Shown one piece after another: positions 8,081 to 63,143 of a stretch of DNA of 64,000 nucleotides. This DNA comes from an uncultured Gemmatimonadales bacterium (GTDB lineage Bacteria > Gemmatimonadota > Gemmatimonadetes > Gemmatimonadales > GWC2-71-9): contig CAVVKJ010000010.1 in the NCBI GenBank assembly GCA_963748815.1, positions 1,088,001 to 1,152,000 on the forward strand, in the 5' to 3' direction. Position numbers and translations under genes: made by a program. The notes beneath the pieces are model-generated. The model was given only the letters and a program-made list of their open reading frames with translations. It was not told the origin of the DNA and did no database searches. Numbering within the stretch: position 1 is the first letter of the stretch; every line of letters begins with the position of its first letter.

Positions 8081-8250
8081 TCTCGGCGTATCCCGCCTCC
8101 CCCGCTGACGGCCCCCCGGGAATACCCGGGGGGTCGTTCTGCATCTTGCGGCGGTTGGTCAGAGCCCAGTGTCTGGCGAAACCGGCCAGCCGACGATATC
8201 GTGGTACCAATTTCCATCCCACCACCCGCCGCGACACCCTGGAGGATTCC

Positions 8251-8856: not shown

Positions 8857-9074
8857 GGCGGGAGTCGTCCAATTCAGGCCGCCGAGAAGGCCGAGGAATC
8901 GAACTCCCCAATTCGGTCCGCCATCGCAGATCTGGGCATCCCCCGCCCGAATCCCGCCCGGACTGGTCGAGAATCCCGCCCCCCTTCCCCATCGCCGAGT
9001 CTGGCCGTACTATCCATCCGTTCCGGCGGCTCAGCTGACGGTTTCGACGGCACTTCCTCAACCCTGAGGCACCC

Positions 9075-9674
9075 ATGCGCACTTGGTTTCGTCGGTGTTC
9101 CACTCTCGCCGGTCTGGCTCTCGCCGCCGTCGCCCTCCACGCCTCTCCGGCGTCGGCCCAGCAGCAGGCGTCGGTTGGCTTCCTCGGCGGCGCCTCGTTC
9201 TCCACGCTGATGAGCACCGACTCCGACGTGTCGCCCAAGTCGTCGACGGGGTTTGCCGGCGGGTTCTTCGTGTCGATCCCGGTGGCCAAGTCGCTGATGG
9301 TCGAGCCGGAAATCCTCTACGTCAACAAGGGTTCCGGCTTCGAGGACGAAGAGTTCACCCTCAATCTCAACTACATCGAGATCCCGGTCCTGCTCCGCTA
9401 TGAATTCACCCAGGACGGCGGTCCGTTCGCCTATGTCGGCCCGTACGTCGGGTTCAACGTGAAGTGCAACGCCTCGGTCGATACGCTCGGGACCCCCTGC
9501 GCCGACGAGAACGTCGAACCGTCGACCGACTTCGGCGGCACGATCGGCATCGGATACCGCAAGGCGGCCTGGGGCTTCGACATCCGCTACGACTACGGAT
9601 TCACCGACGTCATCAAGGACGAGAAGGGGAAGAACTCCGCCCTCATGATCCTGCTTCGCGTGGCCGTCAACTAG
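9075..9674 (+). CDS. Outer membrane beta-barrel protein, copy 6
   Basis: Signal ASAQ; EPEILYVNKG, LNYIEIPVLLRY, DIRYDYG. Confidence 0.85.
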   Translation: MRTWFRRCSTLAGLALAAVALHASPASAQQQASVGFLGGASFSTLMSTDSDVSPKSSTGFAGGFFVSIPVAKSLMVEPEILYVNKGSGFEDEEFTLNLNYIEIPVLLRYEFTQDGGPFAYVGPYVGFNVKCNASVDTLGTPCADENVEPSTDFGGTIGIGYRKAAWGFDIRYDYGFTDVIKDEKGKNSALMILLRVAVN

Positions 9675-9690
9675 CCCCGACATCATCGCC

Positions 9691-9731
9691 AGCGGCCCTC
9701 CGGAGCACTCCCGGGGGGCCGCTCGCTTTTT
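9691..9731 (+). terminator. Intrinsic terminator
   Basis: AGCGGCCCTCCGG..CCGGGGGGCCGCT hairpin plus T-tract. Confidence 0.65.
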
Positions 9732-23904: not shown

Positions 23905-26900
23905 ATGGCCTTCGCCCACCTACATACCCACAGCGAATACTCGCTCCTCGACGGCGCCAACCGCCTCGATGCGCTGGTCGACCACGTCCGGGGCATGGGC
24001 ATGGACAGCCTGGCCGTCACCGATCACGGCAACCTCCACGCGGCGTGGTCCTTTTACGAGGCCGCCAAGGCTGCCAAGATCCGCCCCATCCTCGGCTTTG
24101 AGGCGTACCTCGCTTTCGGATCCCGTCGGCAGCGCGAAAAGCCCTCCGGCGCCCCCGCCTTCTACAGCCACCTGGTCCTGCTGGCCCAGAACCGGACCGG
24201 CTACAAGAACCTGATCAAGCTCAGCTCGATCGGCTACACGGAGGGGTTCTACCGCCGGCCCCGCATCGACAAGGAAGTCCTCGAGGCGCATTCCGAGGGA
24301 ATCGTCTGTCTCGCCGCCTGCCTCTCGGGCGAGGTGGCGCTCTGGCTCCGCCAGGGCAACTACGAGGAGGCGCGGCGGAGCGCGGCCTGGTTCGCGAAGA
24401 CCTTCGGACCCGACCGGTTCTGGCTCGAGATCCAGAAGCACGGCATCCCGGAGGAGGACCTGGTCACCGAGGGGATGCTCAAGCTGGGGCACGACCTCGG
24501 CCTCGGGGTGGTCGCGACCAACGACGCCCACTACCTCCGCCGGGAAGACGCCGAGGCGCACGACGTCCTCCTCGCCATCGGGACGGGGTCCGACCTCGAC
24601 GACCCGAAACGGTTCCGCTTCACGGGACAGGAATCGTACGTGAAGTCCGAGAAGGAGATGCGGGCGCTCTTCCCCGACCATCCGGAAACGATCGACAACA
24701 CCCAGCGAGTGGCAGACCTCTGCGAACTCGATTTCGAAAAGCGGTACTTCCTTCCCGAGTTTCCCGCGGCCGGCGGGATACGACACCGACGAACGCCTCC
24801 TCGACCACCTCGCCCGCGAGGGGGCCGCCGAGCGGTACGGCTCGCCGCTGCCGGCGCCGGTGCTGGAACGGCTGGAATACGAGCTCGGCGTCATCAACAC
24901 CGCGGGCTACGCCGGGTACTTCCTGATCGTGCAGGACTTCATCGCCGCGGCGCGCGACCGTGGCATCCCGGTCGGACCGGGCCGTGGCTCCGCCGCCGGC
25001 TCGCTCGTGGCGTACGCCCTCCGCATCACCGACGTGGATCCGCTCCGGTTCGACCTGCTCTTCGAGCGGTTCCTGAACCCGGAACGCGTCTCGATGCCGG
25101 ACATCGACGTGGACTTCTGCTTCGAGCGGCGCGGCGAGGTCATCGAGTACGTCCGCGCAGCGCTACGGGCGGGAGAGCGTGGGGCAGATCGTCACCTTCG
25201 GGACGATGAAGGCGCGCGCGGCGGTCAAGGACGTGGCCCGGGTCCTCAAGATTCCGCCCGGCGAGGCGGACAAGATCACCAAGCTGATCCCGTCCGGCCC
25301 CGGCTTCAACGTGACGATCCCCGAGGCCGTGAAGAAGGTCAGCGAGCTCCGGGATCTGGTGAAGGGCAATCCGGTCTACGAGCGGCTGATGGACCTCAGT
25401 GCCCGGATCGAGGGGGTCTCCCGCCACCTGTCGGTCCACGCCGCCGGCGTCGTCATCGCCCCGGGTCCGCTGCGCCGACTACGTGCCCGGTCTGCACCAC
25501 GCCGACCAAGGGGGCCGGACAGTCGGCGGGCGGCGAGGACGTGATGATCACGCCAGTACGAAATGGGCGCGCTCGAGAAGGTCGGGATGCTCAAGATGGA
25601 CATCCTCGGCCTCAAGACGCTGACGGTGATCCACGACGCGCTGCAGATGATCGGCGTACGACACGGCGCCGCGCCCGACCTCTCCGTCACCACCTACGAC
25701 GACCCGAAGGTGTACGAACTGCTCCGGGACGGCCGCACCGCCGGCGTGTTCCAGTTCGAGTCGGCGCTCGCCACCGAGACGCTGCGCGCCATGCGGTGCG
25801 ACCGCTTCGACGACCTCGTCGCCACCAACGCCCTGCTCCGCCCAGGACCGCTCGACGCCGGCATGCACACGGTGTTCATCAAGCGGAAGCTCGGCCAGGA
25901 GGCGGTCACCTATCCCCACCCGTCGCTCCAGGGCATCCTGGAGCCGACCTACGGCGTCATCACCTACCAGGAACAGGTGATGCGCATCGCGAACGTGCTC
26001 GCCGGGTTCAGCCTGGCCGAAGCCGACGTGCTGCGGAAGGCGGTGGGCAAGAAGGACGAGGCGCTGATCAAGCAGGAGGTCGGGCAGTTCGTGGAGCGCG
26101 CCATGGCGCAGGGGCACCCCCGCCGCCTGGCGGAGGAGCTCGGCGGCGCAGATCGAGACCTTCGGGCGGTACGGCTTCAACAAGTCGCACTCCGTCGCGT
26201 ACTCGGTGCTCTCCTACCAGACGGCCTGGCTCAAGGCGCACTATCCCGCCGAATTCATGGCCGCGCTGCTTCAGCTCGGAAATCGGCAACACCGACAAGG
26301 TGGTGCAGTACATCAACGAGGCCCGCGAGCTGGGGCTGGAAGTGCTGCCGCCGGACGTGAACGAATCGGGGTTCAAGTTCACCGTCGTCGGCGAGAACCG
26401 GCTGCGGTTCGGGCTCGGCGCGGTGCGCAACGTGGGCGCCGGCGTGATCGAATCGATGATCAGCGCCCGGCGCGACGGACCGTTCCACGACCTCTGGGAC
26501 TTCGTCGGGCGGATCGACCTGCGGCTGGGCAACCGCCGCGTGATCGAATCGCTCATCGTGGCCGGCGCCTGCGACGGCCTGGGCGGGCATCGCCGGCAAT
26601 ACCTCGAGGCGCTCGACGCCGCCCTCGGCGAGGCGCAGCTGCGGCAGCAGGAGCGGGAGGCGGGGCAGTCCTCCCTCTTCGGTGAGGTGCTGGCGACCTC
26701 CAAGCCGGCGGGGCACAACCTCCCCGACGTGCCGCCGCTGCCGGAAGCGGACCGGCTGACCCGCGAGAAGGAGGTCATCGGCTTCTTCATCTCCGGTCAC
26801 CCGCTGGAGCGGTTCCGGGCCGAGGTCGAGCTGTTCGGGACGCGGACCACGGCCACCCTGCACGAGTGGAGCGAGCACGAGGTCAGCGTCGCCGCCGTGG

Positions 26901-27394
26901 TCACCGGACTCAAGCGGCAGATCTCCAAGAAGACCGGGAAGGAGTACGCCCGGCTCACCCTGGAGGACTTCCACGGCACCTCGGAGGCGATCGTCTTCCC
27001 CGACGCCTGGGCCAAGCTCAACCAGGTCATCACGGCGGACGCGGCCATTCTGCTGGGCGGCGGCTACAGCGCCCGGGACCGGGGGGAGGACCGGGCGCCC
27101 TTCGTGGTCGAGTCGGCCCGGCCCCTCGCCGAGCTCCGGGAGAGCGGGGCCCTGGGGGTCAGCCTCCGGTGGCGCGCCCCGGACGCCCCCCCGCCCGACG
27201 CCGTCAAGGCCGCCGCGGCCCTCTGCGCGTCGCATCCGGGGCCGGCGCCGGTCTATATTGAATGGAGCGACGGCAACGGCGAGGCCCTCCGGCTTCGCGC
27301 GCGCCGTCTTCGCATTGCCCCCGATGAAGACCTCCTCCGGGCCCTCCGCGAGCTGCTGGGTGCCGGTGCCGTTCACTACGTGAAGGCGGGGTAA
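23905..27394 (+). CDS. dnaE: DNA polymerase III alpha subunit (several frameshifts, likely errors)
   Basis: [16 protein letters not shown] domain, [27 protein letters not shown]-terminal OB fold. Confidence 0.95.
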
Positions 27395-39911: not shown

Positions 39912-40160
39912 GGACGACCTCCTTGGCATGTTCGGCGACGACGCGGACGACGTTCCCCACCACCTGCAGGAACCCGCCGCGCACCGCAAAGGACTGCTCG
40001 CCGCCGGCGACCCGCACCTGCAAGGTACCCTCGCCGAGCAGCGTCATGAATGGGGCGTGGTGCGGCAAGACCCCCACCTGCCCGTCGTAGGCGGGGGCCT
40101 GCAGGCTCTCCGCCTCCCCGTCAAAGATGGAGCCTTCGGGGGAAATCACCGTGACTCGCA

Positions 40161-40164
<4 letters not shown>
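39901..40164 (-). CDS. atpC: ATP synthase epsilon subunit (short form)
   Basis: [26 protein letters not shown]; follows atpD. Confidence 0.9.
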
Positions 40165-41596
<1,432 letters not shown>

Positions 41597-41629
41597 GCGT
41601 TGGTATCCCGTGAAGTCAGAGTGATCGAG

Positions 41630-44117
<2,488 letters not shown>

Positions 44118-44298
44118 GTGTGTGGTCGCCTGTTTCACCAAAAGGGGTGAGAAGATTCGCTTCGTCTACAGCTTGTGAAAATAATCACATAGCGGGGTCG
44201 GGGGCAACCGCCACTGCCGTTGCGAAGCCCTGGTGTGCCGGCCCGGGATTGCCGCGTCGGCCCCTGCCGGGGCCTCCTCGCAATGACAGAGTTCGGAG

Positions 44299-49179: not shown

Positions 49180-49252
49180 GGGGGCGTAGCTCAGTTGGGA
49201 GAGCGCGTGAATGGCATTCACGAGGTCAGGGGTTCGATCCCCCTCGCCTCCA
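49180..49252 (+). tRNA. tRNA-Ala(GGC)
   Basis: Cloverleaf, G3:U70, anticodon GGC. Confidence 0.95.
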
Positions 49253-49337
49253 CTCCCAGACAGGACCGGGTGGCGGGATGCGCTCGGAGTGGTTGCGCGA
49301 GGGCGGGGACTCGGCTAGACTCCCGTCCCTCGTCATT

Positions 49338-49410
49338 GCGGGAATAGCTCAGTTGGTAGAGCACAACCTTGCCAAGGTTGGGGTCGCGGGTTCGAGTCCC
49401 GTTTCCCGCT
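49338..49410 (+). tRNA. tRNA-Gly(GCC)
   Basis: Cloverleaf, anticodon GCC. Confidence 0.95.
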
Positions 49411-49426
49411 CTCCAGAGGACAACGT

Positions 49427-49500
49427 CGCGGGGTGGAGCAGTCTGGTAGCTCGCCGGGCTCATAACCCGGAGGTCGTGGGTTCAAATCCCACCCCCGCTA
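49427..49500 (+). tRNA. tRNA-fMet(CAT)
   Basis: CGCGGGG start with unpaired C1, GGG/CCC anticodon stem, CAT. Confidence 0.95.
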
Positions 49501-49598
49501 TTGCAGGACCAGGACTGGGGACTGAGGACTGAGGACTGAGAGGTCGCAGGTCGCCGCCCTCGGTGTTCGGATCTTCGGGAACCAGTCCTTGCGGTTTC

Positions 49599-49672
49599 GG
49601 GCGGTTAGCTCAGTTGGTTAGAGCGCCACGTTGACATCGTGGAGGTCACAAGTTCGAGCCTTGTACCGCCCA
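49599..49672 (+). tRNA. tRNA-Val(GAC)
   Basis: Cloverleaf, anticodon GAC. Confidence 0.95.
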
Positions 49673-49680
49673 TGCAGTCT

Positions 49681-49754
49681 GCGCCCATAGCTCAATTGGA
49701 TAGAGCATCTGACTACGGATCAGAAGGTTAGGGGTTCGAGTCCCTTTGGGCGCA
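49681..49754 (+). tRNA. tRNA-Arg(ACG)
   Basis: Cloverleaf, anticodon ACG. Confidence 0.95.
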
Positions 49755-49766
49755 TTGTTGCAGGGA

Positions 49767-49840
49767 CGGGGCGTAGCGTAGCCTGGTAGCGCGCCTGCTT
49801 CGGGAGCAGGAGGTCGCCGGTTCAAATCCGGCCGCCCCGA
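49767..49840 (+). tRNA. tRNA-Pro(CGG)
   Basis: Cloverleaf, anticodon CGG. Confidence 0.95.
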
Positions 49841-49868
49841 TTTACATTAGGATGGTAGGGAAGGGTTC

Positions 49869-49942
49869 GGGTCCGTAGCTCAGTTGGATAGAGCGCTTGC
49901 CTCCGGAGCAAGAGGTCGTAGGTTCGAATCCTATCGGGCCCA
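49869..49942 (+). tRNA. tRNA-Arg(CCG)
   Basis: Cloverleaf, anticodon CCG. Confidence 0.95.
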
Positions 49943-50016: not shown

Positions 50017-52206
50017 CTAGTTCCCGGTCCAGACTCCGGGCCGCACCGATCCCACCCAGGCCGGATTGTGGCCGTTGCCACTCTTGTCCGCGACGTCCGT
50101 GGGAGTTGGGTTCAGGTTCAGGTACCACGGCGTCCGCACCGAGCCAGGCGAGGCGATCTCCTGGGCGATCTGGGCCGGAGTCAGCACCACATCATAGAAT
50201 TGATAGCCGCGCAGGATGGCGTTGGGAATTTCCTTCCCCTGATTCCACGGCGCATCCCCGATGATGATCGCCGGGTCGCTCACCATCGAGAGGGCTCGCG
50301 CGTGCGTCCACTGGACCACGCCAGTGGTCGTGTTCGGCCAATTGAAATAGTAGGTATACACCTCATTGTTGCCCACCAGTTCGGCGGTGGCCACCTGCTG
50401 GTACCACTGGTTGTACCCCACGGGCACACCCTGCGCCCCGGACGTCGCCGTTCGGTCATCGCAGTACCCTGCGATTTCCCACTTGTGTTCCATGTTGGTT
50501 TCCCGGTCAGGCCACGGGTGGAAGCCGTAGTAGGTGTGACACGGTACCTCTCCCTGCGTCCACGTGGTTTCATACCTGGCATAGAATAGGAATGTCCAAT
50601 AGGACTGGAGAAAATTGTTGTTCGCCCGTGGGTATGCCCGCCAAATGTAGGTCGCCGGATAGGCGGGCATCGGGGCAGCCCCGCTCCGCGCCTGATTCCA
50701 GGTAAGGATGGCAGACGGGCTCTTCGAGGGGAAGTTGACATTCCCGGGGAAATCGAGGCCGGTGAGCAGCCCGGACGCCTGGGTCACCGTGACCGTACTG
50801 GTATCCGCCAGGCTCCCGCTCTGCTGCTGGGCGATGACCCGGAAGCTGCCCGCCGTATTGCCCGCCGCGTAGAATCCGCCGGAACTGATGCTGCCACCGG
50901 TGGCAGTATAGGTTACCGCCGGCGCCGTCGTGGCTCCGTCGCTCCACTGCCCGCTCACGCTGAACTGCTGCGCGCCGCCGGTGGTGAGCGACGCGGTGCT
51001 CGGCGTCAGGATCACCGCCTGGAGGACCGGCGGCGTGGTGGTCAGCGTGACCGTCGAGGTGTCTGCCAAGGTCCCGCTCTGCTGCCGGGCGATGACCCGG
51101 AAGCTCCCCGCCGTATTCCCCGCCGTGTAGAGCCCAGCACTGGTGACGCCGCCGCCCGTGGCAGTGTAGGTCACCGCCGGTGCCGTTGTGGCCCCATTAC
51201 TCCACTGCCCGCTCACGCTGAACTGCTGCGTGCCGCCGGTGGTGAGCGACGCGGTGCTCGGCGTCAGGATCACGGCCTGGAGGACCGGCGGGGTGGAGCT
51301 GAGGGTCACCGCGCTGGTGTCGGCCAGGGTCCCGCCCTGCTGCACGGCGATGACCCGGAAGCTCCCCGCCGTATTTCCAGCCGTGTAGAGCCCAGCACTG
51401 GTGACGCCGCCGCCCGTGGCACTGTAGGTCACCGCCGGTGCCGTTGTGGCCCCATTACTCCACTGCCCGCTTACGCTGAATTGCTGCGTGGCGCCGGTGC
51501 TGAGCGACGCGCTGCTCGGCGTCAGGAGCACGGCCTGGAGGACCGGCGGGGTGGTGGTGATGGTTACGGCGCTGGTGTCGGCCAAAGTCCCACCTTGCTG
51601 CGTGGCGATCACCCGGAAGCTGCCGGCCGTGCTTCCCGCCGCGTAGAGCCCGCCGGCATTGATGGACCCGCCGGTGGCGCTGTACGTCACCGCCGGCGCC
51701 GTCGTGGTCCCGTTGCTCCACTGCCCGCTCACGCTGAACTGCTGCGTGCCGCCGGTGGTGAGAGACGCCGTGCTCGGCGTCAGGATCACCGCCTGGAGGA
51801 CCGGCGGGGTCACCACGATGATGGTGGAATCCTTCGGGGTACACCTGTACCTGCGGCACCACCAAACCCAGAAAGAGCCAGCACTCAGGGAGCTGAACCG
51901 GGCGGTGGAATCCGTGAGTACCTCGACAGAGCCGCCGCTGGAGCCCCACTCGCCGTCCATCGCCACCTCCTCGCCACCCGGGTTCATGACGCTGGCTCGC
52001 AGCAGGGAACTTTCTCCAATCAGAAGGGCGGCCTTCTCTGCGGTAAGCGTCACCGACTCAACCGCATCCGGGCCAAGACTGTTCTTCAGCTCACCAGGGG
52101 CACAGGCAACGATCAACGATGCAAGCCCGAACGAAACGCGACGCAGGATAGCGCGGATCGCCGGCGGAGCTCGGAGTGCAGAAATTAGATTTGCCACGCT
52201 TGTCAC
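50017..52206 (-). CDS. Surface lipoprotein: Ig-like tandem repeats plus C-terminal ConA/LamG-like domain
   Basis: Lipobox LIVAC; four 86-aa Thr/Ser-rich repeats; Trp/Tyr-rich C-domain with DKSGNGH. Confidence 0.8.
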   Translation of the reverse strand: MTSVANLISALRAPPAIRAILRRVSFGLASLIVACAPGELKNSLGPDAVESVTLTAEKAALLIGESSLLRASVMNPGGEEVAMDGEWGSSGGSVEVLTDSTARFSSLSAGSFWVWWCRRYRCTPKDSTIIVVTPPVLQAVILTPSTASLTTGGTQQFSVSGQWSNGTTTAPAVTYSATGGSINAGGLYAAGSTAGSFRVIATQQGGTLADTSAVTITTTPPVLQAVLLTPSSASLSTGATQQFSVSGQWSNGATTAPAVTYSATGGGVTSAGLYTAGNTAGSFRVIAVQQGGTLADTSAVTLSSTPPVLQAVILTPSTASLTTGGTQQFSVSGQWSNGATTAPAVTYTATGGGVTSAGLYTAGNTAGSFRVIARQQSGTLADTSTVTLTTTPPVLQAVILTPSTASLTTGGAQQFSVSGQWSDGATTAPAVTYTATGGSISSGGFYAAGNTAGSFRVIAQQQSGSLADTSTVTVTQASGLLTGLDFPGNVNFPSKSPSAILTWNQARSGAAPMPAYPATYIWRAYPRANNNFLQSYWTFLFYARYETTWTQGEVPCHTYYGFHPWPDRETNMEHKWEIAGYCDDRTATSGAQGVPVGYNQWYQQVATAELVGNNEVYTYYFNWPNTTTGVVQWTHARALSMVSDPAIIIGDAPWNQGKEIPNAILRGYQFYDVVLTPAQIAQEIASPGSVRTPWYLNLNPTPTDVADKSGNGHNPAWVGSVRPGVWTGN
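50780..51810 (-). repeat. Four tandem 258-bp intragenic repeats
   Basis: PPVLQAV.LTPS..QQFSVSGQWS..AGSFRVIA unit recurs every 258 nt. Confidence 0.9.
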
Positions 52207-52526
52207 CTCATTGGAGTTCCCACGTCAAGGCCAATCAGCCGACTCTCGCGTTCTTGACCCGACGAGGTGGTCTGCTTGGAACTACCGGAAGGATTTACCG
52301 GCGAGTGCCGTAGAACCATCGCTCGAAGGGACGGATTGTGGGCTACACCGGAAGGTGGACAGGCGGCATGTGGGAGGTCGCTGGAGGGAGCTTGGCCGAC
52401 CGCATTGGTTAGGAATCCGGCGTCACTCCTGGATCGCCAGTCGGTCTCGGAAGCGTGGGCGAGTGCGAGGATTGTTGGGGGGGGACCAAGTGCGATATCA
52501 CAAGTCAGGTCAATGAGATCCTATCC

Positions 52527-53630
52527 CTAGGGTCCGGTCCAGACTCCCGGCCGCCCCGGTCCCACCCAAGCCGGGTTGTGGCCGTTGCCACTCTTGTCCG
52601 CGACGTCCGTGGGAGTTGGATTCAGGTTCAGGTACCACGGCGTCCGCACCGAGCCGGGGGAGGCGATCTCCTGGGCGATCTGGGCCGGCGTGAGCGCCAC
52701 ATCATAGAACTGGTAGCCCCGCAGAATGGCATTGGGCACTTCCCTGCCCTGATTCCATGGTGCGTCCCCGATGATGATGGCAGGATCGGTGTTGGGCAAG
52801 TCCTTCGCGTGCGTCCACCGGATCACATCGGTCGTCGTGTTCGGCCAGTTGAAATAGTAGGTGTACACCTCGTTGCCGCCAATCAGTTCGGTGGTGGCGA
52901 CCTGCTGGTACCATTGGTTGTACCCGATGGGCACGCCCTGCGCCCCGGACGTCGCCGTCCGGTCGTCACCAAAAGCGGAAATCTCCCACTTGTGCTCCAT
53001 ATTGGTTTCCCGGTCAGGCCACGGGTGAAAGCCATAGTACGTCTTGGACGGGATCTCCCCCTGCGTCCACGTAGTCTCGTACCTGGCATAGAACAAGAAG
53101 GTCCAGTAGGACTGGAAAAAATTGTTATTCGGTCGTGGGTAGGCTCGCCAAATGTAGGTCGCCGGATAGGCCGGGAACGGAGCCGCGCCGCTCCGAGACT
53201 GATTCCATGTGAGGATGGCGGACGGGCTCGGAGATGGGTAGTTGACGTTCCCGGGGAAATCGAGGCCGGCAAGTGACTCCGATGGCTGTGTCACCGTCGC
53301 CGACGCCGAACCGCGTTGACCTTCACTCGCCGCCGCGATATCAGACAACCCGGCCGCCACTGCTTTGACGAGGCCGTTCCCGTCAACCGTGGCCCGGGAA
53401 GGCTGACTCGACGCCCAAGTCACGATCCGCCCCGTGAGCACAACCCCCGCCGCATCACGCAGCGTCGCCACCAATTGTCTTGACTGCCCTACTTCCAGGA
53501 CCAGGTTTCCGGGGGAAACCGTTACCGAGGCGACTGACGCCGGAACGGACTCCGTCGCGTCCGGACTGCACGAGAACGCCGCACACACCGCCGCGAGCAT
53601 GGCGGAGAGGTTGCGCGCCTGGCTCCACAC
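52527..53630 (-). CDS. Lipoprotein: one Big_2-like domain plus the same C-terminal domain (paralogue)
   Basis: Lipobox AFSC; VASVTVSP..VTWASSQPSRATVD; C-domain near-identical to 50017..52206. Confidence 0.8.
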   Translation of the reverse strand: MWSQARNLSAMLAAVCAAFSCSPDATESVPASVASVTVSPGNLVLEVGQSRQLVATLRDAAGVVLTGRIVTWASSQPSRATVDGNGLVKAVAAGLSDIAAASEGQRGSASATVTQPSESLAGLDFPGNVNYPSPSPSAILTWNQSRSGAAPFPAYPATYIWRAYPRPNNNFFQSYWTFLFYARYETTWTQGEIPSKTYYGFHPWPDRETNMEHKWEISAFGDDRTATSGAQGVPIGYNQWYQQVATTELIGGNEVYTYYFNWPNTTTDVIRWTHAKDLPNTDPAIIIGDAPWNQGREVPNAILRGYQFYDVALTPAQIAQEIASPGSVRTPWYLNLNPTPTDVADKSGNGHNPAWVGPGRPGVWTGP

Positions 53631-53737
53631 GCCCCCGCGTCGATATTCCGGCACGGCGGGGAGCGCCGTGGGCGCCGACGGGAGGAGCACTTCGAGGTGG
53701 CCAGATTCCGGGAAAGCAGGTGGGTACCATCGGGGCA

Positions 53738-54934
53738 TCAGATCGTCCGTTGCGGCGAGCCCAGCGCCTTCGCGAAGCGCCACCAGCGTCGTCCGGCCTG
53801 CAACTGCCCGGCGAGGCGCTCCCCCACCCCCCGGTCCCGGTCGAGCCTGAAGACGCGTTTGAAGAGCTCGTTGGACTGCCAGGGCCGGGAGTCGCCGTGC
53901 CCGGAAGCGCGTGGCTGGATTCCGGCGCTCCAGAGGAGCTTCGCCATCCAGACGGACGGACAGGCCCCGAAGAGCCCGGTCGTGATGTAGCCCCGCTCCA
54001 GCGCGTGGCTCAGGACCGCGGGCTGCTGTGGACGGAGGGCTTCGAGGACGGTCTTCGGGATCGGCGTACCCGACAGGGTGTGTGTGATCGCGAGCGTCCA
54101 GTACGCACACGTTCCGGCTCGTGTGCGGACGGCCAGCTCGGTGAATCGGTCCCAGTCGAAGGGTGCCGCGGCCAGGATGGTCGCGATGTCCCGGACCGTG
54201 CGGCCCATGCCGCTGAACATGTGCGACCAGGCGAAGTGCACGGACAGGTGCAGCAGTTGATGATGATCGGACGGCACCCACGCCTCGACATCGCCAAGCC
54301 TGACCGGCCTGGCGTCACGCCAGAGCTCGGCCACGTCAAGCTGAAACGGCCCGGTCGGAGGCAGCATGGAACGGTGAATTTCCAGCACCAGATTGAGACC
54401 CTTTGGATCCACCAGGCCGGGGAGGTGCTGGTGCCCCTCGAAGAACTGTTCGCCTCCCTCCAGTTCAAGCCCCCACCCGGCCTCCCGCATGATCTGCCAG
54501 GCGCGTTCCGACTCACCGACTGGCACCAGGATGTCGAAGTCTCCCATCGGCCGCTTCAGAAACGACCCATAGACCGTGGTCGCCAGCGCCGCCCCCTTGA
54601 GCAGCATGACGCGGATCCCGTTGCGCGCGAGCGTCGCGGCCACCTCCCGCAGGGCGGTCTCCGTCAACGCCATCCGGAACTCGGTCACGGCGGCCTGGGC
54701 CTGGAACGCCGCCCGGACATCCGGGGGGACGAGCTCGGACTGTGCCCGCATGTACTTCCAGAGCACGGGGAGCAGCTTCTCCCGTTCCGCCAGCGCACCA
54801 ACCGCCCGCCAGTTCGGCCGGGAGGCCGCGAGTGCGGCAAAGTACGTCTCCCCGCACACGGCGTCCGGACGTGCGGCAAGGAAGAGCAACCGGGCCTCGT
54901 CAGGGAGCAGTGGCATGGGAGAAAACCGGTTCAA
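53738..54934 (-). CDS. Nucleotidyltransferase family protein (NTP_transf_5-like)
   Basis: LLKGAAL..YG..RPMGDFDILV, LEIH, LLHLSVH. Confidence 0.85.
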   Translation of the reverse strand: MNRFSPMPLLPDEARLLFLAARPDAVCGETYFAALAASRPNWRAVGALAEREKLLPVLWKYMRAQSELVPPDVRAAFQAQAAVTEFRMALTETALREVAATLARNGIRVMLLKGAALATTVYGSFLKRPMGDFDILVPVGESERAWQIMREAGWGLELEGGEQFFEGHQHLPGLVDPKGLNLVLEIHRSMLPPTGPFQLDVAELWRDARPVRLGDVEAWVPSDHHQLLHLSVHFAWSHMFSGMGRTVRDIATILAAAPFDWDRFTELAVRTRAGTCAYWTLAITHTLSGTPIPKTVLEALRPQQPAVLSHALERGYITTGLFGACPSVWMAKLLWSAGIQPRASGHGDSRPWQSNELFKRVFRLDRDRGVGERLAGQLQAGRRWWRFAKALGSPQRTI

Positions 54935-55731
54935 TATTGGGCCAGGGTGCCCTGTCGGCGCGCGTACCGAAAGGCGGCGGTGATGGCGGCTGTGCCGATC
55001 AAGAAGAGTATAACCGTCGCGGCCGAGAGCGCGAGGAGGTCAGGGGCGACGTCGGCGATGGACGCGTCCTGAAGCACCACGCGCCGGAGCGCGCGGAGTC
55101 CGTAGCTCAGGGGGAGCAGATCCGAGACCGACTGCAGCCAGGAGGGGATCACGTGCGTCGGGTAATAGACTCCGCCAAGCAGCCCGGAGATCATCAGCAC
55201 CCCCTTCGGCAAGGGGCCGGCGGTGCGAAAGGCGAGCACGAGGGCCGCCCCGACCAGGCCGATGGGGACGTGCGCCAACACGACGAGCAGCAGGATGGCG
55301 AGCCCCGGCAGGAATTGCCCGGGCATGAGATTGGCGCCAAGGAGCCACCCGGCCATGAGGAGGATGGCCCCCTTCAGGGCGGCCCACAGCATGTCGAAGG
55401 CGTTCAGGCCGGCGAGGAGGGCGGGGCCGGAGGTCGGCGTGGCCAGCAACGCCTCGAGCACCCCGCTGGCAACTGCGCTGCCGACCGCCGCGGGGAGGGC
55501 TACGACGGCGACGGAAACCACCGAGAACGTGGTCAGGCCGACTAGCAGAAAGCCAAACGACTGCCCCCCCTCCATCTTGATGGCGTTGGCCATGACCGGC
55601 TGGAGTGCGCCGGAGATGAAGTAGAGCGGAACGACCGTAGCGAGGAGGCCGGCGATCGAGACCACCATTTGCAGCCGATAGCTGAGCATCGTCTGCCAGT
55701 GTGCACGGCACAGTGCAGCAATCCGTCTCAT
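54931..55731 (-). CDS. ABC-2 type exporter permease
   Basis: Six TM, GVLEALLATP, LLGGVYYP..PSWLQ..LPLSY. Confidence 0.9.
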   Translation of the reverse strand: MRRIAALCRAHWQTMLSYRLQMVVSIAGLLATVVPLYFISGALQPVMANAIKMEGGQSFGFLLVGLTTFSVVSVAVVALPAAVGSAVASGVLEALLATPTSGPALLAGLNAFDMLWAALKGAILLMAGWLLGANLMPGQFLPGLAILLLVVLAHVPIGLVGAALVLAFRTAGPLPKGVLMISGLLGGVYYPTHVIPSWLQSVSDLLPLSYGLRALRRVVLQDASIADVAPDLLALSAATVILFLIGTAAITAAFRYARRQGTLAQY

Positions 55732-56817
55732 TGCGGTCCCCTCGCGACGACCCGCTCGATCAGATCCGCCAGGCTCAGCGGGACATGCGAGAGCTCGCTT
55801 ACCGGTACACCCTCGGCGACGAGTCGGCTCGTGAGGTCAGCGCACGCCAAAGCGCCGCCGGGGATGGCGCCCTCGAGCTCGCACCATCCAGACTCGGGCG
55901 CGGGCTGCTCGATGAACGGGCCAAGGCCGGTCGTCTGGAGGACTTGTCGTGCCTCGCGCATTCGGTCGGCTGCGACTGAAATCCGGTAGCGGTTCTCGCC
56001 GGCGATCGCGGCGAGTTCCGATGCAGATCCGTGGGCGATGACCGTGCCCCGGTCCAGCACCGCCAGCCGGTCGCAGAGCTCGAATGCCTCGTCCGCGTCG
56101 TGGGTCGCCAGGAGGACGGTACACCCCTGTCGACCGACAATCTCCTCGCGGAGAAATCGGCGAAAGTCGCGGGCGCTCACGGGGTCGAGACTGCGGGTCG
56201 GCTCGTCGAGGAGGAGGACGGCTGGGCGGGAGAGGAGGGCACGCGCGATCAGCAGGCGCTGCTTCATGCCGGAGGAGTAGGTACCGACCATTCGGCTTCC
56301 CGCGTGGGCAGAGTCCGACCGCATCGAGGAGCCGCTCGGCGGTCCGCTCCCGCTCCGCCTGGTTTCACGTCATACAGTGCGGCGTAGAGCGCCAGATTCT
56401 GCAGACCGGAGAGTCGCCAGTAGAGGCTTCGCTCATCGGCGATGACGGGAGTGAGCATCCCGCGCACGGCAGCCGGATCGGTCAGGACGCTGCGACCGCC
56501 GACTTCGACGGAGCCGGCGTCGGGGAGCACCAGGGTCGCCAGGATCTTGAAGAGGGTCGTCTTCCCCGCCCCGTTGGGTCCCAGCAGTCCAAAGAACTCG
56601 CCCTTGTCGAACGTCGAGCGACACGCCCGCGCAGCACCTCGACTTGCTCCCGGTGGAAGGGACGCCGGAGTGTGTCGGTCCACGATCGGCGCAGGGGAAA
56701 GGTCTTCACCAGCCCGTCGACATGAACAATAGGCTTGTGCGCCGGGTCGCCGCGCGAGGCGCCCACGTCCGGCCTGGACCCATCGCGAGCGACCCGAGCG
56801 TCATCGACTGGCTCATG
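55728..56817 (-). CDS. ABC exporter ATPase (frameshifted; start approximate)
   Basis: [24 protein letters not shown] in separate frames. Confidence 0.85.
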
Positions 56818-57779
56818 CCGGGCCCGGAGCGGAGCTGGGGACTCTTGCGCGGAGTGCCATCCCATCAGACTGGAGGTCAGCTCCCCGATCCGCTCGAAGT
56901 CGCGCGGAATTTCCAGCCGGTAGACAGGCACCCGCTCCCCCAGCTCCACCAGGCGCTGCAGCAGCACCGCCCGCCGTTCGACGCCGAGGAGCGCGCCCGA
57001 CCTTCGTCTGGCCGAGGAGCGCGAGGGCAGCTTCGACAGCCGATAGGCGCGTTCCGGTTCACGATGCCCCCTGCGTCAGACTTGATCGGAGCGAGGAGGT
57101 AGACGCGCCGCGAGCGGGACCGCGGCTGTGGCATTCCGATCGGGGTCTTTCCAGGCGACCTGGAGCTTTGGCGCCAGCTGCTCCGGCGTCACGGGTGAGG
57201 CTTGGCCCGCGACCCGTGCGGCGGAGTCGGCCCAGAGTTGCACGACGGGGACGCTGGGCAACACCAGGGGATGCTCGCCGGAGGTGACGGGGACGAGGTC
57301 GTCGGCGAGCAGCCGTCCCCCGGCGTTCACGAGCGCGGTGGCGGTGGTGGACTTTCCGTGGAACTTTGGGCGCGAGAAAGGCGACGGCAACGTCGCCGAG
57401 GGCGACGGCGCTCCCGTGGAGCGTGATGATATCCTCCTGGTCCAGCGCCACGGCGAAGACTCGCCCGAGGATGTCCTTGCGGACGGCGTCCATGTCGGGT
57501 TCGGGCGGTGGCAGCCCAGTCGATCCTCCGGCCATCTGCGGAAATGTCGAACACCCCGGTATCGTCGAACGCGAGGCGGAGGGCCCGACCTGCACGGTAG
57601 AGTGACACGCTGACCCCGGCATCGACGTCCTCTGTCCCCAGTCGGCTCAGGTCAGGGAGAGGGGGTGGTGCGTTCAGGCGGTGGAGGGACCAATCAGGGA
57701 ATTGGGCGGGGCGGGGAATGAGCTCAGGAAACTCTACTTCCGAGCGGAAGACACCGCCGAAGAGATGGTAGTCTGGCAT
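56814..57779 (-). CDS. HPr-kinase-like lasso peptide kinase (frameshifted)
   Basis: LHGSAV, APKFHGKST P-loop, LLADD, VPVYRL. Confidence 0.75.
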
Positions 57780-57843
57780 TGGGAGTCCGGGTTGGAGGGT
57801 CGGACGGCCTGACCCGCTGGCCGCCCGGCCCCACAGTCGGAAC

Positions 57844-57982
57844 CTACGACCGCGTGCACCCAACGGTGCAGCCGTCAAGGAAGCCGCTGCCGAGAAACGC
57901 CACCGTCCCCATCGGCGCCAGTGCCGACGAGGGTGAGGGCCCGAAGGTCCCCGAACCGCTGAAGAGCAGGCTTCTGATACAT
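57844..57982 (-). CDS. Lasso peptide precursor A2 (one extra base near 57894)
   Basis: AAGGAG RBS; MYQKPALQRFGDLRALTL leader (YxxPxLxxxGxxxxxT); corrected core VGTGADGDGGVFGSGFLDGCTVGCTRS. Confidence 0.85.
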
Positions 57983-58036
57983 GATGCGCTCCTTCGAACA
58001 GTATTCACGGGCAGCTGGCCCGCACAGCCCACGGCC

Positions 58037-59999
58037 TCATGCCGCAGGAAACTCCACTGCCCGGTCGCTTGACCCGATGGAGGACAGTGACCGGCGATTC
58101 ACGTTGTTCCAGCCCACGCAGCCAAAATTCGGTCTTGATCGTGTGAAAGAGGTTCACTCTCACGAACTCGTTGCACCAGTCACTGGAGTAACTGTCCACC
58201 GCCCTCCGGAGGGCCGGCAAGTCCACGATGCCAAGTTCCGCGAGTCGCAGCGGTTCGGAGAAGAGTTTCGCGAATAGTGCCGGATAGGATTCGCTCATCC
58301 GGCGTTGTGAGAATCCGATGGTCATTCCCGTTCGGTGAGGTCGCGGCGCCAAGACCGATTCCGGCAGCAAGCCAACCATCGCCTGGCGGAGGAGGATCTT
58401 GGTCTCGGTGCCGTCAGCACGCTCGGCAATTGGCCGCCGAAGTGCGAAGTCCACGATCCTCAAGTCCAGCAGCGGCGATCGAACCTCGACCCCTTCTTGT
58501 AGCAGCGGACCCCGCATGAACGCCCCACCCCACCCCCAAACCGGCAGCGTGAGGTAGAGCAGGCTCTCGGTCTGCGCCAGTCCGTGGCCTCGTACCCTCC
58601 CGAACACCGAAAGATCCCGCTCGCGCAGGCTGCTGCACGGCCAGGAACTCCGGGCGAACCCATGTCGCCGGGGCGCGCTCGAGGTAGTGCCGGGGGAGCC
58701 GGTGCCCGAGCACTCGCTCCCCAAATTGGACGACCGATCGGGGAAGGAGTGGCAGCACTCCGGCTCGGACGAGGTGCCGCCAGCCGCGCGGCCATCGCGT
58801 CCGCGCCGAGCTTCAACGAACTCCCCCCAGCGGCCGGTTCGGAGCAGGTCCGCAAGCAGGACGTCTGACACCTGGAAGAGCTGATCGCCACCACATCCGT
58901 CCAGCGTGACCCGTGCGCCGGCGCGGCGCGTGCCCTGCGCAAGGCCTCGATTCCAGAGTTCGTACAAATGCGCCGGCGGCTCGTCGTACTGTGCCGCGCG
59001 GTCCTCAAGTCGTTCGAGCATCTGGAGATCGTCGCTCTGGAGCCAATGAACCTCAGCCTTCCAGTGCTCAGCGACCTGACGTGATGAACTCGTCCTCGTG
59101 GCCTGGGTCACCCTCCGGATAACTGATCGACACCGGACGAAGTCGTGGCCGTGTCTCGGGGGTCAGGGCATGTTGACCGGCGCGCAAAGACAGCCGTCGA
59201 GTCCCAGCCACCGCTCATCCAGACCGTGCGTCACGCCGCTGGCAGAGCCGTTGGGAGACGGCCGTGCACAGCAGTTCCCGAAGTTCATCTGCGGCCTCAG
59301 CGGACGGCGCTGGATGCCGGTCGGGAGCCTCCCGAGGTTGCCACCAGGTCGCCGTCGCTGCGTCGCCGTCCCGCCAGACGACTCTACGCCCGGGGAGAAG
59401 CGTGTCAACTCCCCTGATACGCTGTGTCCATTCCGTTCGACCATGCCAACCCGGCGACTTGGCCGCCGAGATTGGCCAGGTTCAGCTGGTTGGTCGTGCC
59501 CCGCAGTTCTGCCAGCGCCCGGCAGGAGGAGGCCACGGCAATCCCGGAGCCGAGGCTCGCGCACAAAAAGTGGGCGCCCACCGATCGGGTCCCGCGCCGC
59601 GAGCAGGGTTCGGCGGCGGCGGTCCCAGATCACGAACGCGTAGTCACCGTTCAGGTGGTGGACCATCTCCGAGCCCCACGCGCGGTAGGCCGCTTCCAGG
59701 TAGTGGCTCGCCGTCTCGCCCCGCGCTCGCACGCCAGCCGTCGAGAGCTTCCGCGCGAGTCCCTTCTTGTCAAAGAGCGAGGCGTCCGCCGCCACCACCA
59801 GGTCTGGCGTCTCGAGTACCAGCACGTCGACCGCTGAAATCGTCGTCGAGCTGCCATTCCTTCCGCGTCACGACGAGGAGCGCGTCCTCCTCCGACCAGA
59901 CCTGCTCCCGGTCGCCGCCGAGGTAGCGGAGCGGCGCCGAGCGCCGACTCCACCCGGGAGTCGCGCACCTGACCGATCGACCGCGAGGATGCCGCTCAT
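58037..59999 (-). CDS. Lasso cyclase (asparagine synthetase-like; frameshifted; 3' end approximate)
   Basis: MSGIL start (no catalytic Cys), GDYAFVIWD..AARDPIG, SGGWDST, DGCGGDQLF, EVRSPLLD. Confidence 0.85.
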
Positions 60000-60448
60000 G
60001 GCGCCAGCGCCGAGAAATCGTGCAGCGGCGTGAAGCGGCTGCACCCGCGACCTGCTCGTCACCGATGACCCGGCCCTCGAGCTCGATCCAGGCGTGGGCC
60101 AGCAGCTCCCCCGCAACCTGCGCCACGCCGACCCGGACGACGGCGGGCCCGGCGTTGGCCCGCCGGATCTGGCGCTCCAGCGCCACCGCCCGGACGAGGC
60201 AGGTGGGCCGGAAGAGTCCGAAGCGGGCCACGCGGTCCACCGCCAGGGCCAGCCGCTCCAGACGCGCATCGTTGCGGACACCCGCTCGCCGTCGGTGCCG
60301 CGCTCAGCGGGCGGAGCAGCTCGCCCTTCGGGCGTCGCCGGATCGTCCAGAGCGCCGCCAGGAGATACCACTGGGCGAGGACCAGGTCGGCAAACTCCCG
60401 CGGCGTGAGGGTGAAGAGCCTCCTCACGACACCGCATCCAGCGGTCAA
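59996..60448 (-). CDS. Lasso leader peptidase B2 (transglutaminase-like; frameshifted)
   Basis: TCLVRAVAL..VRVGV..AHAWIE; TGA overlaps cyclase ATG. Confidence 0.85.
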
Positions 60449-60765
60449 ACACCGGCGTCGTCCTCACGTCGACGTCCACCAGCAGCTTGGCCTCGCGGAG
60501 CTGATCGAGCAGTTCCGATGACATCCGCCGCGAGCTGCGCTCCGGGGACGTCGGGATAGACCTGTCCGAGCCGTGCGCAGAGATCTTCCAGGCTGGCGCA
60601 CGCAGGTGGCAGCAACTGCCAGATCCGCGCACCAACATCATTGAGCCCGAAGTAGATCTCATCCTCCATCTGCAGGAGGACGGCGCCTTCGGAGACTTCC
60701 CGGAACATGACGGCCGGGTGGGGACGAGGAAGAATGGTCGGAGCCTCCGCATGAGCGCGGTTCAC
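60445..60765 (-). CDS. PqqD-family RiPP recognition element (lasso B1)
   Basis: EGAVLL..EIYFGLNDVGARIWQLL..L.DV.ELLDQLREAKLL. Confidence 0.85.
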   Translation of the reverse strand: MNRAHAEAPTILPRPHPAVMFREVSEGAVLLQMEDEIYFGLNDVGARIWQLLPPACASLEDLCARLGQVYPDVPGAQLAADVIGTARSAPRGQAAGGRRREDDAGV

Positions 60766-61087
60766 GGGAAATCCCGGATTCGAATTGATTGAGGAACGCC
60801 GGGGCCTCCGGCGAGAGAAGAGCTTGAGGCAAGGACAATTCCCGAACTGCCACCGTGTCGGGAGTCGCCACAAATGCTTGTCAGTGAATGGCTTAGAAAC
60901 TGATGCCACGGGGGATTCGGCGCCCGTGCCGAGTCATCGGCGCCGAGCCGGATCCACGGGAATGTCGGGGGGGCACGACACGACTGCAGAGAGTTGTCAG
61001 TGCACGGGGCTGTCTGTGCGGTGTTGGCTCCTGGGCGAGAGACCGGACGGGCTCGTGTGCGAACCGCCCAGTCTCCCAGAACGTGGC

Positions 61088-61229
61088 CTACGATCTCCCG
61101 GCGCACCCGATGGTGACAACCATCGATGTACCCGGTGCCGAAGATGCCACCGTCCCCATCGGGACCGAGCCCGATGAGTGTGAGGGCCCGAAGGTCCCCA
61201 AACCGCCGAAGTACGGGTTTCTCGTACAA
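61088..61229 (-). CDS. Lasso peptide precursor A1 (TTG start; one extra base near 61115)
   Basis: AGGAG RBS; MYEKPVLRRFGDLRALTL leader; corrected core IGLGPDGDGGIFGTGYIDGCTIGCAGRS. Confidence 0.85.
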
Positions 61230-61339
61230 GCGGGCTCCTGGGAAGAGTGTCACGGGCAACTGGCCCGCACAGTTCGCGACATGGCGCCGCGCCGACCGTG
61301 ACAGACGGTCAAGCGCCCCGCTCGTCACCAGCGGTAAGG

Positions 61340-61355
61340 GCAACTCCCGTTCCAG
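61340..61355 (-). promoter_or_regulatory. Putative sigma-54 promoter of lasso operon
   Basis: CTGGAAC-GGGAG-TTGC on minus strand about 110 nt upstream of A1. Confidence 0.55.
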
Positions 61356-61414
61356 TGATCACGGTCGATGCGGCCAATTGCGCTTCGGAAGACCGCTTGA
61401 CCAAGCAGTTGCAA

Positions 61415-61427
61415 TATCAACACTTTA
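61415..61427. promoter_or_regulatory. IHF consensus site
   Basis: TATCAA-CACT-TTA matches WATCAANNNNTTR. Confidence 0.45.
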
Positions 61428-61584
61428 GGAGCGGTGATCCTCGAGATGGACCGTGCAAATTGTGATGTGGACAACCGGGGAGCCGAGTACCGCAGCGACT
61501 ACGCCACACTTCCCGACACACAACACCCCGTCCCTCCTCTCGGAGAGCGGGGCTTGTGCACTCCCCCGGACCGACCCTCCGGGG

Positions 61585-61986
61585 TCAGACCCGCGCGTTC
61601 GCCACCGCGCGGACCACGTCGCTCTGCGAGATGACTCCCAGCAACTCGCCGTCCTTCTCGACGAAGAGCCGGTGCACGTTGGCGTAGAGCATCTGCTGCG
61701 CCGCCTGCTTCACCTCCGCCTGCGGCTCGATGGTCATCGGCTTCGGCGTCATCAGGTCCCGTACCAGCATGTTCTCGAACATCGCCCCCGCCTCGGCGTC
61801 GACGCCCCGCTCCGCCAACGCGGTCAGGATGTCGCTCGTGGAGAGCACCCCCACCAGGTGCAGGCTGGCATCCACCACCGGCAACCCGGTCACGTGCGCG
61901 TCGGCCAGGGAAATGATCGCTTCGGACATCGGGCTGTCACTGGGGATCGTCACCAGGTTGGACTGCATCAGCTCACTGACTCGCAT
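61585..61986 (-). CDS. CBS domain pair protein
   Basis: VSELM, GLPVVD..LVGVLSTSD, VRDLMT, LLGVISQSD. Confidence 0.9.
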   Translation of the reverse strand: MRVSELMQSNLVTIPSDSPMSEAIISLADAHVTGLPVVDASLHLVGVLSTSDILTALAERGVDAEAGAMFENMLVRDLMTPKPMTIEPQAEVKQAAQQMLYANVHRLFVEKDGELLGVISQSDVVRAVANARV

Positions 61987-62267
61987 AACGACCTCCCGCT
62001 AGGGTCACCTGCAACCTACCCCCCTCCAACGTGCCACACCGTGAACCACCCGTGAACGGGCCTTCACGCAACCATCACCATCCCTTTACCCGGCCGGTCC
62101 AGATTCCCAATCATGCGCACCCGCCCCCGCCCGACCCCTGAGTTCCTCGAGGAATTCCCCTGGCTGGCCCCGGATCCCGAGGCCGCCGAGCGTGACTCTT
62201 ACCGCCCCCATCCCAAGGCCCTCGTGCACCCGGTTCGGCAGTGGCCCCGTCGGCGGAAGGCTCAGGC

Positions 62268-63143
62268 TCAACCCTCCCCCAAGGGGGGGTGAAGGGCCAG
62301 CACCGGCACGTCGGAGCCACGCACCACCTTGTCGGTCACACTCCCCAGCACCAATCGCTTGACCCCCACCGCGCCCCGCGTGGCGATGGCCACGCAGTCG
62401 GTGGCCTCCGGTCGTGCCTGGTCCAGGATCGCCTGCGCCGGCGAGTCCGACACCACCACCGTGGTGCTCACCCGGCAGCCGCGCCGCTCCAGCCGATCCG
62501 CGACTTCGTCCAGATAGATTGCCGCCGCACTCCGGCCCTGCGCCGCCGCGTTGGCCTCCGGGGTCACGACCCGCAACAGCGCCAGCTCGGCCGTCGGCGG
62601 CGGGCAGAGCGCCAGCGCCGGCTCGATAACCGCTTCGGCCCGCTCCGACCCGTCGAGCGCAATCAGCATCCGCCGAAACGCCATCCGGCTCTCCTGCACC
62701 GTCTCCTCCTTGTGCCTGAGCAGCAGGAGCGGCACGTCAAGATGCCGCAGCAGGTGATCGGCCACACTCCCCAGCCAGAACCGGCTCACGGCGCCGCGGC
62801 CGTGCGTGGTCATCACCACCATCCCCGCCCCGATCCGGGTCACATACGCTGCGAGCGTCTCGGCGACCGGGCCGTCCAGGATCTTCGTTTCGGTGTGAAT
62901 GCCGTAGTGGAGACGCATCCGCTCCGCGAGTTGCACCAGGTACTGCTCCTCGCCCTCCCGGGCCAGGCGATCGAGGTCGTCGATGGCCGTCGCCATCGCC
63001 GCCGAGTCCGCGCTTGGAGCGACCGGGTGGTGAACCAGCGCCATATGGAGCACGGCGCCGGTGCGGCGTGCGGTGGCGCAGGCGGCGCGCAACGACTCCT
63101 CCGCGAGCCGGGATCCGTCGAGCGGGGTCAGGATGGCGCGCAC
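62268..63143 (-). CDS. Universal stress protein (tandem USP)
   Basis: ILTPLDGS, MTTHGRG..WLGSVAD, LVLGSVTDKVVR. Confidence 0.9.
   Translation of the reverse strand: MRAILTPLDGSRLAEESLRAACATARRTGAVLHMALVHHPVAPSADSAAMATAIDDLDRLAREGEEQYLVQLAERMRLHYGIHTETKILDGPVAETLAAYVTRIGAGMVVMTTHGRGAVSRFWLGSVADHLLRHLDVPLLLLRHKEETVQESRMAFRRMLIALDGSERAEAVIEPALALCPPPTAELALLRVVTPEANAAAQGRSAAAIYLDEVADRLERRGCRVSTTVVVSDSPAQAILDQARPEATDCVAIATRGAVGVKRLVLGSVTDKVVRGSDVPVLALHPPLGEG

Follow-up and report, generated by a model that had tools for sequence, protein, structure and literature searches.

What would be made by a peptide gene cluster most of whose genes are interrupted by frameshifts, and does such a cluster work at all? 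The question is raised by a 64,000-nucleotide stretch (hereafter the window) of contig CAVVKJ010000010.1, from the assembly GCA_963748815.1 of an uncultured Gemmatimonadales bacterium, in which a first-pass annotation had described a lasso-peptide pathway with kinase and nucleotidyltransferase tailoring in a Gemmatimonadota-like genome. Using open reading frames and hidden Markov model (HMM) searches, we found the genes A1-B1-B2-C-A2-K-D1-D2-N in this order on the minus strand, between 53738 and 61229, and both the proposed pathway and the proposed gene order are borne out by the frames and domain matches. Three relatives of N in named records, with 73, 58 and 39% identity, come from Gemmatimonadales or Gemmatimonadaceae metagenome-assembled genomes (MAGs), whose titles are consistent with the lineage. 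Only D2 and N are single open frames. Overlapping stop and start codons, which had been described at several junctions, are found, each time over four bases, at B2/C (59999-59996), at K/D1 (56816-56813, with the end of K read in a shifted frame) and at D1/D2 (55731-55728), while the overlap at D2/N (54934-54931) exists only with a TTG start of N, and relatives favour the ATG at 54916. We consider it quite probable that this lasso-peptide operon is intact and functional, and that its frameshifts arose in the assembly.

The four models suggested for checking the cluster (PqqD, Transglut_core3, Asn_synthase and NTP_transf_5) all score above cut-off on its pieces. B1 matches PqqD with 43.4 bits (cut-off 23.4) and is 65% identical to the intact B1 of locus L024. 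B2 matches both Transglut_core3 (42.4 bits, cut-off 26) and the lasso B2 model NF033537 (44.2 bits, cut-off 33), and the Cys, His and Asp (His+12) of its triad are all present in the alignment, with a spacing that we take to be that of McjB. The pieces of C, which is 61% identical to the intact L024 cyclase, exceed the cut-offs of GATase_7 and Asn_synthase (78.1 bits for the latter, cut-off 21). Across 46 cyclases whose motifs were compared, C has Ser at residue 2 in place of the glutaminase Cys, and its SGGWDS and DGCGGD motifs are intact; the only solved structures matching an intact cyclase by sequence are a hydroxyamidotransferase and asparagine synthetase B. N reaches 149.6 bits for NTP_transf_5 (cut-off 31.2) and carries Asp-x-Asp at residues 132/134, numbered from the TTG. 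The kinase match of K to Hpr_kinase_C is weak (E 0.0024, under cut-off), and its His, P-loop Lys and Asp-Asp motifs are present in the read-through. Finally, A1 and A2 score 21.5 and 24.2 bits with NF033521, the NCBIfam lasso-leader model (cut-off 19). The cluster thus holds the leader motif, acidic acceptor, RiPP recognition element, B2 triad and asparagine-synthetase-like cyclase of a lasso pathway, along with the kinase motifs, C-terminal Ser and Asp-x-Asp-bearing NTP_transf_5 protein of a phospho-tailored one. The expectation that frameshifts would hide most of it from pipelines is not supported, as even in fragments the genes score above the HMM cut-offs that define the class.

The two precursors suggest what the product would be. 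Each is read across one extra base, giving a predicted core of 28 residues in A1 (Ile1-Gly, Asp8, Cys20, Cys24, C-terminal Arg-Ser) and of 27 residues in A2, which is alike in these positions except that it starts with Val1-Gly. Both leaders have Tyr at -17, Pro at -14, Leu at -12 and Thr at -2, and a leader register from Tyr(-17) to Leu(-12) is given in PMC10368454 (here and below, published systems are compared from excerpts of the papers cited). The reading frame beyond the extra base is fixed by intact near-twins at loci L042 and L046, which share Cys20, Cys24 and the Arg-Ser ending. We then tallied 47 unique related cores from 49 rows, leaving the window's A1, its frameshifted A2 and L071 uncounted; the L071 candidate (75 residues, opposite strand) is spurious. 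The first residue is Ile in 12, Ala in 10, Gly in 6, Thr in 5, Leu in 4, Val in 3, Gln in 3 and another in 4. Asp8 is present in 39/47 and an acidic residue at 7-9 in 43/47, and all 15 cores that start with Ile or Val have Asp8. Forty of the 47 end in Ser. Exactly two Cys occur in 37 cores, where about 2 such cores would be expected at an assumed 1% Cys; two Cys lie beyond position 9 in 29/47, and 27/47 have a final Ser besides two tail Cys. Where Cys7 lies in the ring, as it does in six cores, the tail holds exactly one Cys. In a tree of 46 cyclases (FastTree, midpoint root), the window cyclase falls within a clade of 13 tips with support 1.0, all of whose cores have Ile or Val first and Asp8, and 12/13 of which have two tail Cys, the window's own read-through included. 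Both window cores have exactly two Cys, both in the tail, as class IV requires. Read from sequence, Ile/Val1, Asp8, two tail Cys and the Arg-Ser end therefore point to a class IV lasso peptide with a terminal phosphoserine.

Several observations weigh against this reading. The core counts measure conservation and are not independent tests, because the cores are kin; four of the 47 lack an acidic acceptor at 7-9, and Cys numbers other than two occur as well (none in 5 cores and three in 4, besides one in a single core). The best NCBIfam match of C, NF033535, is below cut-off, and intact cyclases of its family score 190 and 204 against a cut-off of 525. K orthologues, even intact ones, stay under the Pfam cut-off. 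Moreover, BsfK phosphorylates the internal Ser3 and not the C-terminus (PMC10368454).

The acceptor-less precursors are L032:1346, L032:5458, L066:7446 and L003:5886, one of which is a long Gly/Phe-rich repeat. Those with three Cys belong to L048, L049, L053 and L057, and their odd number could allow dimers or another modification.

The predicted N-terminus depends on where the leader is cut. Cleavage one residue later would give a canonical seven-residue Gly1-Asp7 ring with Thr at -3 and no Ile/Val N-terminus. Such a register is permitted by Gly2, present in 37/47 cores, which tells against our assignment; small residues predominate at position 1 of characterised lassos (PMC13632552), Gly1-Asp7 rings exist (huascopeptin, per a title in a reference list), and L054 has one residue more than L059 ahead of an otherwise matching Gly-Lys-Ser-Asp start. 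However, the cores of L056, L059 and L061 start with Gly and yet keep Asp8, and this constant distance from Thr to Asp disfavours the later cut. In addition, Tyr-17, Pro-14, Leu-12 and Thr-2 match the published register exactly (PMC10368454), and cyclases that tolerate nearly any first residue are known (PMC13632552). We thus regard the Gly1-Asp7 ring as unlikely and retain the ring closed on Ile1 or Val1. According to PMC13632552 (2026), there was no precedent for Phe1 or Glu1, and among predicted precursors all residues except Pro occur at position 1; on these statements, Ile1 and Val1 are unusual but not unexpected, and precedents may exist.

From paeninodin and pseudomycoidin, we infer the following pathway. 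K would phosphorylate the C-terminal Ser of the linear precursor, B1 would bind the Tyr-x-x-Pro-x-Leu leader motif (-17 to -12), and B2 would cut two residues past the conserved Thr. C would then activate Asp8 with ATP and join it to Ile1 (A1) or Val1 (A2), forming an 8-residue ring round a tail of 19-20 residues. N would add a hexose, or a nucleotide later exchanged, onto the phosphate, and the ABC-2 pump would export the peptide. Cys20 and Cys24 would oxidise, with no enzyme dedicated to the step, and so close a small ring in the tail (class IV); this ring, together with the decorated end, would likely lock the tail in the Gly-rich ring. Alternatively, the product could be an unthreaded branched-cyclic or a linear phosphopeptide, akin to the linear polyphosphorylated peptides of Bacillota, whose Cys pair has another use, such as metal binding. 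Pseudomycoidin produced without K and N is indeed unthreaded (PMC6993621), the rings here are Gly-rich, related cores run to 43 residues against 33 in pandonodin (PMC13352647), and the phylum has cyclase-less A-B1-B2-K-N cassettes, such as L029, with B1, B2, K and N and no C match. We nevertheless consider this outcome improbable, given a cyclase with intact ATP motifs that is adjacent and conserved, and an Asp8 kept at a fixed distance from Thr-2. The spacing of the Cys varies from 4 to more than 20 residues while their count stays at two, so that a disulfide would fit better than a metal site.

The predicted threaded, tail-bridged product has relatives on several sides. The gene set is of the paeninodin, pseudomycoidin and bsf kind, with enzymology of a known type, and such clusters occur commonly in the phylum. 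A, B1, B2, C, D, K and N also make up published clusters of Bacillus pseudomycoides (PMC6993621) and of Bradymonas sediminis, which is Gram-negative (PMC10368454). Like psmCAKB1B2ND, the window cluster has split B1/B2, a cyclase, an HPr-type kinase, an Asp-x-Asp NTP transferase, an exporter and a Ser-ending precursor (PMC6993621), but it lies in another phylum, with a two-gene ABC-2 exporter, the order B1-B2-C-A-K-D1-D2-N, and two precursors with an Ile or Val first residue and two tail Cys. Pseudomycoidin is decorated with one or two hexoses by a reaction that requires Asp-x-Asp and whose chemistry is unsettled (PMC6993621), and Asp132/Asp134 of N are close to D134/D136 of PsmN by residue number. 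PadeK of paeninodin, ThcoK and SyanK act on the C-terminal Ser of a linear precursor with the same leader motif, whereas the paeninodin cluster is without N and the excerpts describe no disulfide for the PadeK, ThcoK and SyanK peptides (PMC9266682, PMC8498205). The bsf cluster shares a Gram-negative host, the functions A, B1, B2, C, D, K and N and an Asp8 ring, and differs in its precursor, BsfA having Ile at -2 and Gly1 where the window precursors have Thr at -2, Ile/Val1 and a conserved C-terminal Ser (PMC10368454).

With the class IV peptides LP2006, pandonodin and the felipeptins, the window cores share a long tail and one tail-to-tail disulfide, predicted here (PMC9266682, PMC13352647). 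Class IV peptides appear to form this bond without a dedicated oxidoreductase (PMC9266682), and felipeptins likewise come as a pair, as the two window precursors do. Their clusters differ in that those reviewed are listed with no kinase or nucleotidyltransferase, and with an oxidoreductase, FilE, in one only (PMC9266682). Linear polyphosphorylated peptides of Bacillota also combine an RRE, a kinase resembling HprK, an NTP transferase and a Tyr-x-x-Pro leader, but have no cyclase and a signal-peptidase-like protease (PMC13381572); the presence of C and the B2-type protease sets the window cluster apart from that type. The combination of a branched first residue, a tail disulfide and a phosphoserine end was not found in the literature searched, which left most subscription and several primary papers outside. 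The predicted combination, together with the RNA leader described below, is a variant of a known lasso type. Accurate on the gene set, the first-pass annotation did not mention that the cores are predicted to start with Ile/Val and hold a Cys pair, nor did it describe the RNA element or a second cluster.

Such clusters are not rare. N is matched in 21/61 related genomes, and the intact cyclase at E 1e-60 or better in 38/301 genomes across the phylum, nearly all without internal stops (the tally includes one genome marked unpublished, G189, which enters no other result); lasso clusters were earlier counted in 29 of 495 Gemmatimonadota MAGs (PMC11316326, in excerpt). The statement that no lasso peptide has been characterised from the phylum stands, in that a literature search of titles and abstract starts found none. 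The exact order B1-B2-C-A-K-D1-D2-N recurs in 22/56 loci examined, the window's own counted, and is therefore not due to chance; the precursor is at the head in three, four others have two precursors, and many of the remaining loci are truncated where a contig ends. In addition, a second complete cluster, B1-B2-C-A-K-D1-D2-N, lies at C10:1166466-1173430 on the plus strand, 17 kb away and about 14 kb past the end of the window. Its DNA is about 90% identical to a locus in G001, its cyclase sits on a different tree branch from the window's, and its own precursor has Ile1, Asp8, two Cys and Ser. In one genome, the cluster at L023:4045-4690 has a B2 match and no B1 match, while L042 has a B1 match and no B2 match, and the two may share processing proteins.

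To assess the frameshifts, we aligned the window genes to the intact L024 cluster with a frameshift-aware method, which spanned almost the whole length of every gene, with 59-68% identity. C has the most shifts, 11, followed by K with 5, D1 with 4, B2 with 3 and B1 with 1; of these, 23/24 are net +1, and the five genes have no in-frame stops. A closer relative reveals one more shift early in B2, for a total of 4 that are all net +1, and another early in D1, for a total of 5, and DNA alignment with intact relatives places one extra base in each precursor, after the first Cys codon in A1 and near core codon 11 in A2. For comparison, we aligned to G008 a set of 39 genes that lie left of the cluster and are named from their translations. 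They contain 34 shifts in 38.5 kb, confined to 11/39 genes, with 28/39 unbroken; dnaE has 6, atpA 7, a sigma-70-family gene 8 and a dehydrogenase E2 gene 4. A further 10 lie in atpG and 11 in atpD, for a total of 28 with atpA. The shifts occur in bursts, which affect the ATP synthase operon more heavily than the lasso genes. Both 40100-44200 (atpA, atpG, atpD) and 23905-27394 (dnaE) are bursts of single-base insertions, where the base-level assembly is unreliable. One point runs counter to our reading of the operon as intact: the 24 shifts in about 5.5 kb of the five broken genes are denser than the flanking mean, though not than those of the atp operon. The dN/dS values against L019, which are 0.09-0.20 in all seven genes and alike in broken and unbroken ones (C 0.12, unbroken N 0.13), support it, with the reservation that they reflect long-term history and not recent decay. 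As nearly all shifts are single-base insertions, no in-frame stops occur and the window's core genes are broken alike, the frameshifts in the cluster are, on the sequence, almost certainly assembly artefacts. Decay into pseudogenes, for which one could cite at least 28 shifts in 7/9 cluster genes, denser than the flanking mean, and a paralogue 17 kb away that could render the cluster redundant, is very unlikely in view of the lack of nonsense codons, the almost pure +1 bias, the equal or denser breakage of the ATP synthase and dnaE genes, the similar dN/dS, and like bursts in the second cluster (its N alone has 12 shifts, and its B2, D1 and D2 are free of them).

Both window precursors have a double hairpin directly before their ribosome-binding site. 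We aligned 32 of the 50 precursor upstream regions, a set that is biased because the regions were picked after their folds had been viewed. RNAalifold finds 11 pairs, every one with changes on both sides, and 89.8% of pairing cells are filled by pairs, against 72.4% in shuffles (0/500 reach 89.8%) and 35-43% with slid partners. The derived model, R1, recovers 5/18 held-out regions (E up to 0.14), all near kin of training members, and misses 13; in five whole genomes it gives five matches at E <=0.05, all of them directly before a precursor gene and all training members. It does not recover the precursors of G013 or of the second cluster in this genome, and the predicted fold of either window copy by itself is no better than that of shuffles (z -0.45 and -0.65). 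Over 52000-62500, Rfam gave no family, only two chance matches that lie away from the element and far under gathering scores, and a search of titles and abstract starts found no such element upstream of lasso precursors. Most related precursors also have a strong 3′ hairpin, judged by inspection; the one behind A1 may be an attenuator or stabiliser. A scan for sigma-70 promoters and terminators gave 1 promoter-like and 3 terminator-like sites, all within genes and at chance level. The double hairpin would act in mRNA processing or stabilisation, as a leader that increases the supply of precursor, and with the 3′ hairpin it would bracket each precursor mRNA and probably keep precursor message above enzyme message. 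The 3′ end of C probably lies at a TGA within the loop of the first hairpin before A2.

Table 1. Features of the lasso-peptide locus, in window coordinates.
Feature	Position	Strand	Remarks
Two-hairpin element and ribosome-binding site 5′ of A1	61228..61305	-	model R1, 38.2 bits, training member
A1 precursor	61088..61229	-	TTG start at 61229; 18-residue leader; predicted 28-residue core; NF033521
Hairpin 3′ of A1	61040..61076	-	z-score -2.24; 6/200 shuffles as good
B1	60464..60765	-	RiPP recognition element (RRE), PqqD family; start approximate; at least one shift; PF05402
B2 leader peptidase	59996..60452	-	PF13471, NF033537
C lasso cyclase	58037..59999	-	asparagine-synthetase homologue; PF13537, PF00733
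Two-hairpin element and ribosome-binding site 5′ of A2	57985..58060	-	model R1, 51.4 bits, training member
A2 precursor	57844..57982	-	ATG start at 57982; 18-residue leader; predicted 27-residue core; NF033521
Hairpin between A2 and K	57795..57835	-	predicted fold, not above shuffles (z -0.69)
K HPr-kinase-like peptide kinase	56813..57779	-	weak PF07475/TIGR04352; 59% identical to intact L024 K
D1 ABC ATPase, DrrA-like	55728..56816	-	PF00005 (ABC_tran), TIGR01188
D2 ABC-2 permease, intact	54931..55731	-	PF01061 (ABC2_membrane)
N NTP_transf_5 nucleotidyltransferase, intact	53738..54934	-	PF14907; likely start ATG 54916

Next to N, on the minus strand, two tandem genes (50017-52206 and 52527-53738) encode probably secreted proteins or lipoproteins with Big_2 Ig repeats. 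The lasso cluster is on one side of them and a tRNA array on the other, and the stop of N overlaps the ATG of the nearer one. Their shared C-terminal domain, 88% identical between the two, resembles concanavalin A/laminin G lectins by language-model features, and it was found in none of 60 related genomes. As the domain thus occurs in 1/61 genomes, this one only, we rejected these genes as cluster members. The array itself, seven tRNA genes at 49180-49942 on the plus strand beside the accessory block, is a likely integration site. A link to exopolysaccharide loci was likewise rejected, the cluster being flanked by the tRNA array on one side and by CBS and Usp genes on the other, with flanks that vary among relatives. 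Elsewhere, a lower-GC stretch at 5000-9700 holds several tandem genes resembling outer-membrane beta-barrels, a family judged by eye.

Taken together, these results allow a broader proposal, which we put forward only tentatively: that the Gemmatimonadota hold a large, uncharacterised lasso subfamily in which cyclases form rings at beta-branched first residues (Ile/Val) and the products combine a class IV tail disulfide with a phospho(glyco)serine end, on cores of up to about 40 residues, beyond the 33 of pandonodin. A conserved two-hairpin RNA leader outside Rfam would set the precursor supply, and the two near-twin peptides here would act as a pair. If this is true, lasso peptides would be characterised for the first time in a phylum that is abundant and rarely cultured, and their cyclases, suited by nature to long tails and to first residues that are bulky and branched, would be useful for lasso engineering. 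The RNA element may raise yields in expression hosts and could be used to locate precursor genes. Moreover, many intact natural variants differ in whether they have the Cys pair or the terminal Ser, and they would make it testable what a PsmN-type enzyme transfers and whether it is the decorated end or the disulfide that secures the knot.

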